A stretch of DNA of 64,000 nucleotides from Eledone cirrhosa (lineage: Eukaryota): positions 142,166,001-142,230,000 of the forward strand of contig OZ024742.1 in assembly GCA_964016885.1 (NCBI GenBank), read 5' to 3'. Below the pieces are notes generated by a model that was not told the origin of the DNA, ran no database searches, and saw only the letters and a list, made by a program, of their open reading frames with translations. Positions 45,565 through 51,823 of this stretch are shown one piece after another. Every line of letters begins with the position of its first letter. Within the stretch, counting starts at the first letter, position 1. Position numbers and translations under genes: made by a program.

Positions 45565-46437
45565 CATTACTCCGGAGTAACCAAACTAACCTGCGCACTT
45601 CGTCGAGTGCTCCAGACTGCATACTGAGGTGTTGGTATACAACCAACATATACTAAAATATATATATATATATATATATATATATATATATATATATATA
45701 TATATATATATATATATATATATATATATATATGTATATACATATATATATGTATATACATATATATATATATACATATACATATACATATACATATATA
45801 TATATATATATATTTATTTATATTATGTGTATGAGTGCCTGTATGTGTACATGTGTATATATATATATATATACATATGTGTTTGTGTGTACGTGCAGTA
45901 CGTTTCAATTGCCTGTTATTTATTGGCTGGTCAATAAAAAAAGAATACACTCCATGAAAGTAACATACTCTTCTACAACATTACAACTTAAGATCTATAT
46001 CATTTACCATACAATTACATCATTAAACTTGTTTCTTGACAATAGCTGATTTGAAAGTGAACTATTTTCAGAAAATTGTTAGACGTGCTTTAACCTACAT
46101 CAGTCTAGACTATGCCTATATTTGATCAATGAATAATACTTCTCGAAGTGGGTTTAAGCATTTTTTCACTTGTTTTTACTTGTACTATATGTGTATTAGT
46201 AAGACGGGACGGAATATTTTTATCGCTGTTGTCACAATATATATATATATATATATATATATATATATATATTAGAATTGGCGCTCTGAAATAGCTATAT
46301 ATATATGAATGTATATATAGTGTATTTTGCAATACACTGTATGCTTAATTAAAAGCATTTCGAAGATCTTATGCTATTGTTTTAGAGTAGTGACAGTCTC
46401 ACTTACTTTAAATTTTCAGCAAACAGGGGGAGATAAA

Positions 46438-46480
46438 GCTGACAGAGCTATGTTTCGTACTGATTGGTACTTATCAAAGC
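46438..46480 (-). ncRNA. U3-A8 hammerhead in pLTR 46271-46510
   Basis: GCT TTGATAA GTAC-CAATCA-GTAC GAAA CATAGCTCTG TC|AGC. A distal stem I extension pairs 46412-46427 with 46492-46507. Confidence 0.85.
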
Positions 46481-47791
46481 CAAGTACCCCACCTGGTTGC
46501 TGAAAATCACGAATGTTTGATTCTTATAGAATTTCTAGTAATAATCAGGAACTGATTATACAGAGCGGTTGCCGGTCAAACCGCTTTATATATATATATA
46601 TATATATATATATATACACATATATATACATATACATATATATATTATATGCATATATATATATATATACACATATATATACATATACATATATATATTA
46701 TATATATATATACATATATATACACACACATATATATATATATATATATATATATATATATATATATATATATATATATATATATATATATATATATATA
46801 TTCTATTTATATATATATACATATATATTATATATATATATATATATATATATATATATATATATATATATTCTATTTATATATATATATACATATATAT
46901 TATATATATGTATATATATATACACACACATATATATATATATATATATATATATATATATATATATATATATATATATATAAGAGGGTGTTAAAGTTTG
47001 CTTGAAGCATTGTGAAATGTGTAAAATACGTAGTTAAGAAAGCCACAACAATGCAGAGGGAAATCTCGAGGTAGGAAGTGAATGATAGATAGGAGAAACA
47101 GGTGAAAGTGAAAATTGAGAGAGACAAAGATGAAAACAAAACAAAGGTAGAAGGGTTACCGTAGTGGAGATTTAATCCCAATATTTCGGGCTCACGCCCA
47201 TCAACGGGGGAAAAGTTTCAAAAGGGGGGGAACAGGCCAAGCGGAGAAAGTTGTGATGTCGTTAAGACAGGAATGCCGTTATGGGGAGAAAATTATTTCA
47301 CGTGCGCGTGATAGGCTGTGGCAAAAGCTACTGACCAAATGGGTTAAATCAAGAGGGTGCGCTAGCGTGTGAAAGCCGTAAAATATGTGTGTGTAAATAT
47401 ATATGTGTGTGTAACTGTGTGTGTATAAGTGTAAGTGTGTATATGTGTGAGTGTGTGTGTGTGTGAAAGATAGTGGGCTGTAGAAGCTGGAAATCAAAGG
47501 GTGTGAAAGGTGGTAGGTTGTAAAACATGTGTGCGTGTATAAATATAGATGTGTGTGTGTAAGCGTATGGGTATACATGTGTGTGTAACTGTGTGTGTAT
47601 ATGTGTGAGTGCATTTGTGTGTGAAAGATAGTGGGCTGTAGAAGCTGGAAATCAAAGGGTGTGAAAGGTGGTAGGTTGTAAAAACATGTGTGCGTGTATA
47701 AATATAGATGTGTGTGTGTATGCGTATGGGTATGCATATACGTGCGTGTGTGTGAAGATAGCAGGCCGTAGGCTGTGAATGGTCACTATGG

Positions 47792-49125
47792 TTAAGTTAG
47801 CCATGTCAGCTCATTTCTCTCAGCCCGGTTGTTAAGTGGGGGTCTGAGGTTCTTAATAACAAGTGCTTCCTTTATCCTTAAGGATCCGATGCTGCGTTCA
47901 GTCGCTAGGACTGTGACCAAGGGTCTACCCTGTGGGTTTCCGCATTTAAGGATGTGTTTACGGAAGGAAGATGCGTTGGTGTTGATATGTTCCTTGATAC
48001 GAACATGTAGGGGTCGGATGGTGCTACCTATGTAAAACTTGTTACATTTATCGCATTGAATCTTATATACGACATAGGTGCGTAGGCAATCTGCCCCCCG
48101 TATCGGGCAGTTGCTGAGGGAACAGGTCCCATCTGACTCGTCGGGTTTGTTGGAGAGGCATCTTCGCAGCGAAGGTCCTGTGTGGGCCAAATGTATGTCA
48201 AGTCCCTCCGTCCGTATGGCCTTGCGGATGGCGTTCGTGGTATATTCACTCAGGTGGGGGATTTTAAAGAAGTACCTGCTTTTATTTAAGTTTCTAGTGG
48301 GTGTCTGTCTATTGGGTCTGGGGTCTCTAATTCCGTTAATCAGTCGCTTGGGATAACCATTAGATCTGAGTAGATTACGGAATTGCGTGGTATGGGTGAG
48401 ACCACCCATCGGGTCGCTGCATCTGTTAGTGATCCGTGTCAGTTCATTTAGGACATAGCCTCTCTTAGCGTTGTTGGGGAGGGATGAGTTATAATGCACA
48501 AATAAGTCCTTGCACGCTGCTTTGCGGTAGAAGGTGGTGTTTATGTCTCCTTCTTCCGAGATGTTGATACGGAAGTCGAGGAGGGCGAGTGACCCGTCTT
48601 CTCCTGGGTGTTCGATGGTGAAATCGACGTGATGGTCAGTATCGTTGAAGATTTGGTGAATTTCATTCGCCATCTCCCGGGAAGAAGTAAGTATCAGGAT
48701 GTCATCAACGTATCTGGAGTAGAAGGCGACGGCATTGGGTTGGCAGGTATTGAGTGCCTTGCGTTCCAGGTGGTCCATGTACGAGATCGCAAGTATGCCG
48801 GACAGACTAGAGCCCATAGGTAGCCCAGAGATTTGTTTGTACGTGTGGCCGAGGAAATTGAAGAGTGCATTATCCACAACGAAGGAGAGAAGTTGGTGGA
48901 TGTCCGTGTGTGTGAGTCCGAAGCAGTGTAAGTTAGATGCTCGGACTCGTTCGGTCAACAGGTCGACAGCTGGGGATGCTGGTACGGAGGTATAAAGGGT
49001 GACCACATCAAGACTGAAGGCATAACCGTTGTCCTTTCTGGTGTTGGGCGCCAGATGGTGTAGTCGCTCCAAGACCTCCTTTGAGCTGCAGACGTGGGCT
49101 GGTAGTGTGTTAGAAAGTGAGGGGT
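47792..49125 (-). mobile_element. 5'-truncated Penelope/Poseidon-type PLE with an open RT + GIY-YIG frame
   Basis: SLDVVTLYTSVP, YKQISGLPMGSSLSGILA, SRYVDDIL, LALLDFRI, FYRK, SNGYP, VVYKIQCDKCNKFYIGST.RPL..RIKEH, KEALVI..RPPLN. The 3' UTR (~46985-47790) holds a ~158-bp tandem duplication. Confidence 0.95.
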
Positions 49126-49232
49126 TTTTTTTACAGAATGAAAAATAACTGAGGTGTCCAATACGAGTGGAAGTATAAAGAAAAAAAGTTTTTAAATAAA
49201 TTTTAAAAGGTTCGCTGTACTTACTATATGTA

Positions 49233-49314: not shown

Positions 49315-49716
49315 CTTTTCTCGCTCAGAGAATATAAAATTCCCGAGTTCAAATGACAAACTGGCGCCATACAAAACTGTTCCTGAATGAGAGCGAATGA
49401 GGAAAGAATCAATTTTGCCTAGTGCCGTGTGTAAAGACAAAAAGGCATGGCGGACAGGTCAATGTCCTGCTACTAGAAATAATAGCAGTTCAAATTACCA
49501 AAAGTTATCTCAACCTAGTGGAGTTTAATAATAAAGTATGTGTTCCTACGTGTAAAAAATACATATAGGGATACAAGTATTGTCCAACCGTGTGCCAATG
49601 TGGTTCTATGGCAGGTTAATAAATTAACAAGCCACAACATATAAAATCAAGGTTTAGCAAATAGAGAAAAAGTTTTTAAATAAATTTTTAAAAGTTCGCT
49701 GTACTTACTATATGTG

Positions 49717-49798
49717 CCTTTACCGCGCGGTTTCAAATCCCAAAATAGACAAATAATCCAAGCGGATTTCTATTGAGAAAGGGACTTTTGTCAGAAGG
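49717..49798 (-). ncRNA. Second hammerhead of the tandem pair (core CTGACAA, a C3-A8 mismatch)
   Basis: Lies in a ~205-bp direct repeat (49178-49385 vs 49664-49870), 484 bp apart. Confidence 0.75.
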
Positions 49799-50343
49799 CT
49801 TTTCTCGCTCGGAAAATATAAAATTCCCGAGTTCAAATCCCAAACTGGCGCCATACAAAACTGTTCCCGAATGAGGATGTTTACATATATATATGTTTAT
49901 ATATATATGTTTATATATATATATATATGTTTATATATATATATATATATATATATATATATATATATATATGTGTGTGTGTGTGTGTTTATATATATAT
50001 ATATATATATATATATATATATATATATATATATATATATATATATAAACATATATATATATATATATAAACATATATATATATATTAACATATATATAT
50101 ATAAACATATATATATATATATAAACATATATATATATATAAACATATATATATATATAAACCACATATATATATATATTAGAATTGGTGCTCTGAAATA
50201 GCTATATATATATGAATGTATATATAGTGTATTTTGTAATACACTGTATGCTTAATTAAAAGCATTTCGAAGACCTTATGCTATTGTTTTAGAGTAGTGA
50301 CAGACTCACTTACTTTAATTTTCAGCAAACAGGGGGAGATAAA

Positions 50344-50386
50344 GCTGACAAGGCCTTGTTTCGCATTTATTGATGCTTATCAAAGC
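50344..50386 (-). ncRNA. U3-A8 hammerhead in pLTR 50178-50390
   Basis: GCT TTGATAA GCAT-CAATAA-ATGC GAAA CAAGGCCTTG TC|AGC. Perfect 10-nt palindromic stem/loop III. Confidence 0.85.
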
Positions 50387-51823
50387 CAACATATATATAT
50401 ATATATATATCGCATTTCGGCGAGTAGAAAAAGCGAAACGAAACGCAAAAATCAGAGTTATGCTGGCAAGCGCTCCATAGTTAAAAAAAAAACAGAACTA
50501 AACAATATGTTAAAACGCCATACAAACTAAAAAAGTGGTCAAGAAAACATATATATATATATATATATATATATATATATATATATATATATATATATAT
50601 ATATATATAAGTAGAAGGGATATTAATATGTTTATATATCCCGTGTTAAGGGTGAAAAGCAGCTATTCTTTGCTTAAACTTTAATCTGTTATTTTAATAA
50701 ATATATATATATATATATATATATATATATATATATATATATATATATATATATATATATATATATATATATATATATATATATATATATATATATATAT
50801 ATCGAATTATCTCGAATTTCAACTCTTTAATAAATAGACGTACGGATTTATTTGCTCTCTGTAATCATAAATCTTTTAAGACCTTTCACAAAGTTTACAG
50901 CTAATGTCCAATAACATATTCCACGAATAACGCTTAATTTTTTTTTACTCATATATATTTTCAACACATATATCTTTTCACACATTTTTTCTCACACATT
51001 TCATTATATTCTACAATGTATTAATCCCTTTTTCTCTACATTTTTAAGCCTTTCACCTTCTTTCTCTATTGCCTTAAATTTTTCGTTGAAACCTTCGTAG
51101 ATTTTGTAAATAAACTATGACGTCATATGTCTTTCTACGTGTATAAACCTTTCTAGCAATTTCCTTTATTTACTTGTTGATATAAAATAATAATTAAATA
51201 CTATACCCCACATATATAAATTTTTAATAGTAATTTTTTTTATTTTGACATAGACTATTCTTATTTTTATTTTTTATTCTATTCTATCTTATTTTATTTT
51301 ATTTTATTTTATTTTATTTTATTTTAAAAACCCTTTTTTTATAATTATTATAATTATTTTTAATTTAATTTTATTTTATTTTATTTTATTTTATTTTATT
51401 TTATTTTATTTTATTTTATTTTATTTTATTAATACATTTTTTTCACTTCTTAATCCAATTTTTAGTATTCAAACTCAATATAAAATAATATACCCAGTTT
51501 CTATATTCTAGACCTATAATATTTGTAATATTAGCACATACACCTCATCAATTTATTTACTTATTTTTTTAACCGTTATTTACAGATGTTTTTCATTTAT
51601 GACAGCGTTCCCGATCAAAAGTCTCTCTCTCTCTCTTTCTCTTTCTCTTTCTCTCTCCTCCTTCTTTCTTTCTTTTTTCCTCTCTTCTATTTCTTTTTCT
51701 TTTTTCTTTCTTCTTTCCTTTTCTTCATTTTTCCTACTTTTTCTCTTCTCTTATATTTTTGTCATATGTAGACTGGACACTTTCTTGTTCACAAGTATTT
51801 TTAGGCCTCATATCATGCTACCT

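Follow-up and report, generated by a model that had tools for sequence, protein, structure and literature searches.

A 64,000-nucleotide stretch of the Eledone cirrhosa genome (assembly GCA_964016885.1, contig OZ024742.1, forward-strand positions 142,166,001 to 142,230,000; hereafter the window, with positions counted from its first letter) carries two near-identical repeats, copy 1 and copy 2, that differ mainly inside a predicted hammerhead ribozyme. We consider it probable that they are separate, incomplete members of two subfamilies of a 322-base retrozyme, likely pasted into one TA microsatellite by a Penelope-type enzyme, with helix differences that likely built up stepwise under selection for RNA pairing. 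The observations behind this reading are tandem units, subfamilies, covarying pairs, surviving intermediates, 3′ ends at two fixed sites on (TA)n, 5′ ends that are scattered, and inverted arms.

Two copies and their predicted ribozymes

46271..46579, minus strand: copy 1, 309 of the 322 nt of a subfamily-A monomer, with a long 3′ end (unit position 211) on (TA)n
46437..46481, minus strand: predicted type I hammerhead of copy 1; stem I 46481-46478 with 46440-46437, core UUGAUAA 46477-46471, stem II 46470-46457, GAAA, stem III 46452-46443, predicted cut 46441/46440
46271..46295, minus strand: 25-nt 'tail' that separates the 322-nt family's two preferred 3′ ends (unit positions 187-211)
50178..50390, minus strand: copy 2, a 5′-truncated subfamily-B copy of 213 nt, with a long 3′ end as in copy 1, on (TA)n
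50343..50387, minus strand: predicted type I hammerhead of copy 2; stem II GCAT/ATGC 50376-50363, stem III (a perfect palindrome) 50358-50349, predicted cut 50347/50346

Co-oriented alignment of 46271-46485 with 50178-50390 gives ~170 nt with 4 substitutions and 1 indel, while the 28 nt that make up stem II, GAAA and stem III hold 9 substitutions between the copies. The resulting densities, 9/28 in the ribozyme and 5/170 in the rest (Fisher p = 8e-6), bear out the first-pass annotation of this DNA, which had described near-identity over ~170 bp with divergence inside the hammerhead. Both ribozymes lie on the minus strand, their cores starting at 46477 (copy 1) and 50383 (copy 2), and both have the layout of a type I hammerhead: a 4-bp stem I with a longer distal extension, the core UUGAUAA, a stem II of 4 bp capped by a 6-nt loop, then GAAA, a stem III of 10 nt that is a palindrome or nearly one, and finally UC. 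Together with GAAA and UC, UUGAUAA forms the conserved hammerhead core in its U3-A8 version, a known natural variant (PMC3088659, PMC4209133) that was reported to be active in vitro (PMC3088659) and was also reported for Penelope-linked hammerheads of Schistosoma (PMC4209133).

Stem II reads GTAC/GTAC in copy 1 and GCAT/ATGC in copy 2, and stem III reads CATAGCTCTG in copy 1 and CAAGGCCTTG in copy 2, all as annotated before. The accompanying statement that pairing and near-palindromy are retained applies to copy 2, whose stem III is a perfect palindrome, but for pairing it is not confirmed in copy 1, where stem III shows a U·C mismatch at a position that is G-C in the family's commonest variant. 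Copy 1 extends past 46485 to 46579, and both sides of its distal stem I extension are present and able to pair; copy 2 begins 3 bases before stem I and lacks the 5′ strand of the distal stem. Neither copy can release a monomer by itself, and each is probably a dead end. Read-through from copy 2 into copy 1 (46440-50346, minus strand), if cut at both predicted ribozymes, could in principle free ~3.9 kb that includes the truncated Penelope copy.

A retrozyme family by anatomy

Both copies belong to a family of ~322-bp tandem units with a predicted type I hammerhead, which by its anatomy is a non-long terminal repeat (non-LTR) retrozyme. Searches covered the window's own genome (3.0 Gb). With copy 1 as a query they returned 1,655 first-look candidates (40 scored), with neighbours 320-322 bases apart, and with copy 2 they returned 2,205 candidates, including a pure subfamily-B array of at least 11 units. 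An exact pattern around stem III had 1,762 matches on many contigs and 0 in the control, placing the number of ribozyme copies of this family in the genome at no fewer than 1,762; a looser core pattern, which includes other families, had 4,416 matches against 180 in the control. Alignment of 25 full tandem units (partly from overlapping loci), which follow one another head to tail, revealed no open reading frame (ORF), and the Penelope protein had no match inside the unit. The family thus consists of dispersed, non-coding, high-copy tandem units with periods of 320-322 bp (within the ~150-450 bp of retrozymes) in arrays of at least 11, each with one type I hammerhead. Predicted circular folds of the A and B monomers are strongly self-paired (z ~ -5, 40 shuffles); the opposite strand folds similarly (z ~ -4.5), so the fold does not fix the strand. 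Minimum-energy folds of single copies gave alternative pairings instead of the hammerhead fold, as is usual for such predictions, and were not used either way.

As far as the text of Cervera and de la Pena (2020; PMC7229834) goes, these features are shared with animal non-LTR retrozymes, which have tandem units of a few hundred bases with low G+C and one type I hammerhead each, a self-paired predicted fold, Penelope elements in the same genome and more than one ribozyme family per genome (two in the mussel, and two in the axolotl that differ in helices II and III). The family described here differs in its U3-A8 core, its 10-nt palindromic stem III and the lack of a discernible target duplication in (TA)n. 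A palindromic stem/loop III able to form a 10-bp duplex in a dimer is known from dimeric hammerheads (PMC3088659); here, the palindrome could in addition be traced through five states in one family and one genome.

Some further observations concern the unit itself. A splice-donor-like GTAAGT at unit position 76 (window ~46401-46406, minus strand) lies 35 nt past the predicted cut and is kept in 53 of the 69 loci sampled below and in relatives of 72-74%, and an acceptor-like TTTCAG stands ahead of the ribozyme at unit position -23 (window ~46499-46504, minus strand); in a tandem transcript the two motifs could delimit an intron or a small ribozyme-bearing exon. The canonical C3-G8 core is present at locus L089 (positions 95-390, plus strand), in a 74% relative of the unit, which makes U3-A8 a case of covariation inside this repeat superfamily.

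Helices that change in pairs

Loci were sampled from pattern-listed places in the first 125 Mb of contig 1, which avoids selection by likeness to A or B. Scanning 86 loci yielded 135 ribozymes in 69 loci; decayed copies are under-counted, because the patterns require a fairly intact core. Stem II is GTAC/GTAC in 50 of these ribozymes, GCAT/ATGC in 28 and GCAC/GTGC in 16, and the commonest stem III is the perfect palindrome CAGAGCTCTG (41), with the B form found 14 times and the A form 11 times. A and B occur as lineages across the genome, so the variants do mark subfamilies, as had been suspected from the two window copies. Lineage B groups on a tree made without stems II and III (58 of the 69 loci with enough cover), which leaves the order of the other lineages unresolved, and stem II lineages are mixed in 0 of the 37 loci that hold several ribozymes.

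Across the 69 loci, a minor state of at least 10% is found in 10 of 24 columns of the stems and loop and in 18 of 285 elsewhere (p = 6e-6). Core columns are never polymorphic (0/13), in loci that were chosen for intact core context. Four distant relatives match least around the ribozyme (15-19 of 28), compared with ~70-85% at the ends. This variation is not random with respect to pairing: over 64 distinct rows, 94.3% of cells are paired, and 64 cells are changed on both sides, against 23.0 +/- 4.2 in shuffles and at most 14 in slid controls. Four pairs covary, two in stem II (pair 2, UA 35 / CG 25; pair 4, CG 41 / UA 17 / UG 3) and two in stem III (GC 33 / AU 9; AU 45 / GC 12 / GU 4), while stem I varies on one side only. 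The three helices, with stem I open and with support from covariation, are those of a type I hammerhead. The simplest reading is that the helices are constrained for structure only and the rest of the unit for sequence. From the earlier proposal of rapid compensatory diversification it can be retained that the helices are the most variable part of the unit; 'rapid' is borne out by comparison with the rest of the unit, not with a neutral rate.

A palindromic stem III offers an internal control, as every G·U state is matched by an A·C state, its strand mirror, which neutral DNA mutation is expected to produce equally often. Genome-wide, the first wobble occurs 39 times as G·U (CAGGGCTCTG) and 20 times as its A·C mirror (CAGAGCCCTG; p = 0.018), the paired state CAGGGCCCTG has 53 copies (counted from 87 rows shared with CAGGGCCTTG), and the second wobble occurs 34 times as G·U (CAGGGCCTTG) and 8 times as A·C (CAAGGCCCTG; p = 7e-5). 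For an analysis of markers, every place with one of the four intermediate states was fetched, together with 24 of the 53 places with the paired state. In GCAT copies, two markers outside the ribozyme order the series towards B: they are early in the first two states, then mixed, and late in the last two. The excess of the first G·U state is confined to the lineage leading to B (28:8 in the GCAC and GCAT lineages together) and is absent from the GTAC lineage (10:12; one ambiguous copy excluded). At seven loci the second wobble state is present in two or more copies; its A·C mirror is so at none of the 8 places where it occurs. The palindrome can be followed through five states within one family and one genome, and the helix differences are likely to have built up stepwise under selection for RNA pairing. 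Since the innermost covarying pair would close a 2-nt loop in the monomer, its covariation would point to the duplex of the dimer, a form reported for other repeat hammerheads (PMC4209133, PMC3088659).

Paired changes may also come from a mutational process, either from RNA helices that underwent adenosine-to-inosine (A-to-I) editing before being copied back into DNA, or from template switching, by which imperfect palindromes are repaired. In the helices of all 135 copies, A-to-G changes indeed exceed T-to-C changes (38/1293 versus 10/1474, p = 7e-6), with C-to-T and G-to-A balanced, and each wobble state can be reached by a single A-to-G step from an abundant palindrome. However, the asymmetry falls to 11 versus 6 (p = 0.22) when one copy per locus is counted, the GTAC lineage lacks a G·U excess, and every compensatory pair also requires a pyrimidine change, which would not result from editing of this strand. 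Template switching, in turn, would skip the intermediates, which were amplified. We regard editing as a minor rival and a mutational origin of the paired changes as unlikely. We give still less credence to diversifying selection on stem III against cross-dimer pairing, by which the variants would serve to separate subfamilies, as the first-pass annotation had ventured. Helix columns are polymorphic ~7x as often as the rest, and B and the commonest variant are predicted to be orthogonal, with homodimers at -19.5 (B/B) and -20.1 kcal/mol (commonest/commonest) and a heterodimer at -6.5 kcal/mol, but such orthogonality is a by-product of any change to a palindrome. By predicted duplex strength, A does not distinguish itself from B (A/A -7.3, A/B -6.3 kcal/mol). 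Stem II holds half of the compensatory changes yet plays no part in dimer pairing, dimers would arise in cis between like neighbours (variants rarely meet there, given the absence of mixed loci), and acceleration is not shown by any neutral yardstick. Selection to separate these subfamilies is thus unsupported, and stepwise change under selection for pairing remains our preferred reading of the helices.

Insertion ends and the mover

Insertion ends were mapped in 113 arms from the 69 loci. Their 3′ ends fall at unit position ~186 in 56 arms and at ~211 in 44 (13 elsewhere), two preferred sites that are 25 nt apart and lie 145 and 170 nt past the predicted cut; 83 of the 100 arms with a preferred end continue into TA repeats. 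The 5′ ends are scattered. Among the 39 two-arm inverted loci, 28 combine a short end with a long one and 1 has short ends on both arms, where arm frequencies predict ~15 and ~10, respectively. A set of loci picked by likeness agrees on the two 3′ ends. One-sided tails, inverted arms and (TA)n targeting are reported for Penelope elements (PMC8557442), and the Penelope tail has been traced to two internal start sites of reverse transcription (PMC11167929). The 322-bp family, with its two adjacent 3′ ends, one-sided tail, inverted arm, 5′ truncation and microsatellite target, has this same signature, which also marks the Penelope element next to the two copies in the window. From this footprint, we infer that the unit was likely copied by a Penelope-type retrotransposon enzyme.

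The surroundings of the two copies are as follows:

46981..49115, minus strand: young, 5′-truncated Penelope-like element with reverse transcriptase (RT) and GIY-YIG, frame stopping at 47792, with its own 3′ region/pseudo-long terminal repeat (pLTR)
46580..46980, no strand: (TA)n-rich tract, the insertion target shared by these inserts, between copy 1 and the Penelope 3′ end
46238-46270 and 49885-50177: similar (TA)n tracts
49179..49875, minus strand: unrelated 484-bp-period repeat, 1.4 units; a complete hammerhead was not found

Copies 1 and 2 had been annotated as pLTRs that bracket the element at 47792 as direct repeats. The bracketing is geometrically true, and equally so of unrelated inserts in the same (TA)n tract. 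Two pLTRs of one Penelope insertion, with ribozymes that diverged since, would be in keeping with the shared orientation of the copies, with their positions on either side of the RT-GIY-YIG frame, and with the frequency of hammerheads in pLTRs (PMC4209133). The neighbouring element, however, belongs to a family of 98-99% identity in which the A/B unit is present in 0 of 29 other loci (some overlapping; a 74% relative occurs in one, and in the longest copies the element itself occupies the 1.5-kb flank). This family has two 3′ ends of its own, ~40 nt apart (~47022 and ~46981 in the window), and its 3′ end recurs upstream of its ORF in four loci (L064, L070, L072 and L087), which identifies that sequence as its pLTR; no sequence is shared between the element and the 322-bp unit. 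Moreover, the window copy ends abruptly at 49115, where most other copies go on into the ORF, microsatellites and an unrelated repeat lie between it and both units, and the lineages of the two units never mix in the 37 loci with several ribozymes. The Penelope element is a neighbour, not the owner, of copies 1 and 2, which are separate insertions into one (TA)n tract; their origin as a pair of pLTRs is largely refuted and very improbable. The unit could instead be a pLTR or direct offshoot of another Penelope family, with the arrays as its 5′-truncated leftovers and not a self-standing retrozyme. All insertion hallmarks are Penelope-like, and retrozymes were reported to be related to pLTRs in Xenopus (10.64898/2026.07.22.740005), but the units are arranged head to tail without an ORF, and in 150 fetched loci the matches of the Penelope protein are limited to scattered fragments; as read from the coordinates, no such fragment adjoins an A/B unit in the manner of a pLTR. 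We therefore hold such an origin to be improbable, about as much so as the mutational account of the helices, and prefer a self-standing retrozyme moved by a Penelope-type enzyme. As a candidate for a partner element, a 1.7-kb stretch common to the retrozyme loci L179 and L180 was rejected: other sequence separates it from the arrays, and a weak (24%) Penelope match was present in one locus only.

A possible life cycle and points against it

Mobilisation of the family could begin with transcription of tandem source loci, in which neighbouring ribozymes would cut, probably aided by pairing of their palindromic stems III into a double hammerhead. The released monomers may circularise. A Penelope RT-endonuclease would then nick (TA)n, and complementary DNA (cDNA) would start at two internal sites of the RNA, 145 and 170 nt past the cut; the product would be an inverted pair of 5′-truncated arms, one of them bearing a 25-nt tail. 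New subfamilies would be founded only by source copies whose ribozyme can still fold, so that the helices would drift pairwise, with the core and most of the unit unchanged.

Several observations weigh against the reading as a whole. At gathering score, Rfam has 0 matches over the whole window; HH9 matches both copies below threshold, with 17.8 and 17.7 bits (E ~1; gathering score 52), the weak match on copy 1 spanning 46418-46495, and hits over the window at E up to 10 are mainly microsatellite noise. A hammerhead motif is no proof of activity either, as in vitro cleavage was reported as not seen for 8 of 9 retrozyme dimers from Xenopus (10.64898/2026.07.22.740005). The number of pairs changed on both sides is 5, against 4.8 in shuffles, which is no excess; kinship of copies inflates the counts of cells, and the covariation signal comes from four founder events only. 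The second wobble state bears late-B markers and may be an offspring of B rather than its precursor, and C-to-T changes, which also make wobbles, show no excess in the helices (55, against 49 G-to-A). Nor are all changes structure-preserving, although pairing had been annotated as retained: in subfamily A, a stem III with a broken pair was amplified (252 copies, the mirror form having 48), and 21 of 64 rows are unpaired at A's mismatch pair, which indicates that selection on stem III is loose. Regarding the mover, the end at 186 coincides with an internal (TA)5 run and could partly be an effect of alignment or recombination, and no autonomous partner was found with the protein of the neighbouring Penelope family as the sole probe.

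Other ribozyme and coding features of the window

Judged by its motifs, the window is rich in Penelope-type ribozyme repeats. Further hammerhead-like motifs, mostly with a CUGAUGA core and a 6-nt palindromic stem III and including several inverted pairs, are found at 39811 (minus)/39955 (plus), 45463, 51832, 58807, 59290 (minus)/59443 (plus), 62690 (minus)/62843 (plus), 5283 (minus) and 39451 (minus). In its own pLTR (~47170-47210, minus strand), the neighbouring Penelope has a hammerhead-like stretch in which a GNRA-capped 4-bp hairpin is followed by GAAA but the core is shortened; it may be a variant ribozyme. Another U3-A8 hammerhead family is likewise abundant. Its stem III is a minimal CCGG, its sequence is unrelated to the 322-bp unit, and it occurs at loci L092, L095, L100, L105 and L111-L114. 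On the same strand at L095, ~1 kb upstream, there is a Penelope endonuclease region (62% to the protein of the window), which means that this family may carry a true pLTR ribozyme.

The stretch at ~49179-49875 that was annotated as a tandem hammerhead unit is the 484-bp-period repeat listed above. It contains a core-like heptamer, but neither stem I nor stem II was found, and a hammerhead in this family is rejected for now. The family (window 49179-49875, minus strand; L181-L192) has 3,988 candidates. Its main 3′ end, at unit position ~237, lies on (TA)n, and its inverted arms stop near 218 or 345-350. This footprint is of the same kind as that of the 322-bp family, and the repeat may have another type of ribozyme, or none. 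Two frames complete the coding features: a second GIY-YIG frame at 10351-11301 (plus strand, E 3e-7), and a long frame at 2822-4525 (minus strand) whose PDZ match is weak (E 2e-4) and falls short of the curated cut-off.

Relation to known elements and outlook

The basic elements described here are already known: the retrozyme, the U3-A8 core, the palindromic stem III, several ribozyme families per genome and compensatory helix change. Penelope-like elements and their pLTR hammerheads (PMC4209133, PMC8557442, PMC11167929), in the accounts available in those texts, likewise have 5′ truncation, an inverted arm, a one-ended tail, (TA)n targeting and ends that lie away from the ribozyme cut. The unit described here differs from pLTRs in lacking an ORF and in having a canonical 4-bp stem II and a long stem I instead of the minimal pLTR form, and its tail measures 25 nt where theirs measure 30-40. 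Penelope elements had been named as candidate movers of animal retrozymes from shared traits, in a main text in which 'tail' and 'inverted' do not occur (PMC7229834). A recent preprint (bioRxiv 10.64898/2026.07.22.740005) arrives at the same mover, with retrozymes as non-autonomous derivatives of Penelope; it draws on co-occurrence and homology to pLTRs, whereas the evidence here is an insertion footprint, and a pLTR homologue was not found. The main text of that preprint, supplements lying outside the comparison, is without 'tail', 'compensatory', 'covariation' and 'insertion site'. A literature search that joined retrozymes, internal initiation and Penelope found nothing, with much subscription literature outside its reach, and neither did a search for hammerhead satellite subfamilies with compensatory change via G-U intermediates.

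On balance, we lean slightly towards seeing in this family a direct genomic footprint of a Penelope enzyme copying animal retrozymes, with internal starts at two fixed sites 25 nt apart, far from the cut, and without pLTR homology to the nearby Penelope family, together with a complete compensatory fossil series via G·U that includes a pair specific to the double hammerhead. The tail footprint and the ordered intermediates are the parts likely to interest specialists. Arguments about what moves animal retrozymes have so far drawn on co-occurrence and sequence similarity; the tail-and-inversion footprint adds a mechanistic clue, and any genome can be examined for it. The stem III series, with its five states, offers natural variants for testing dimer function and the helix strength needed by a mobile ribozyme. 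If this view is correct, both the question of the mover and the use of dimers in vivo would become directly testable.

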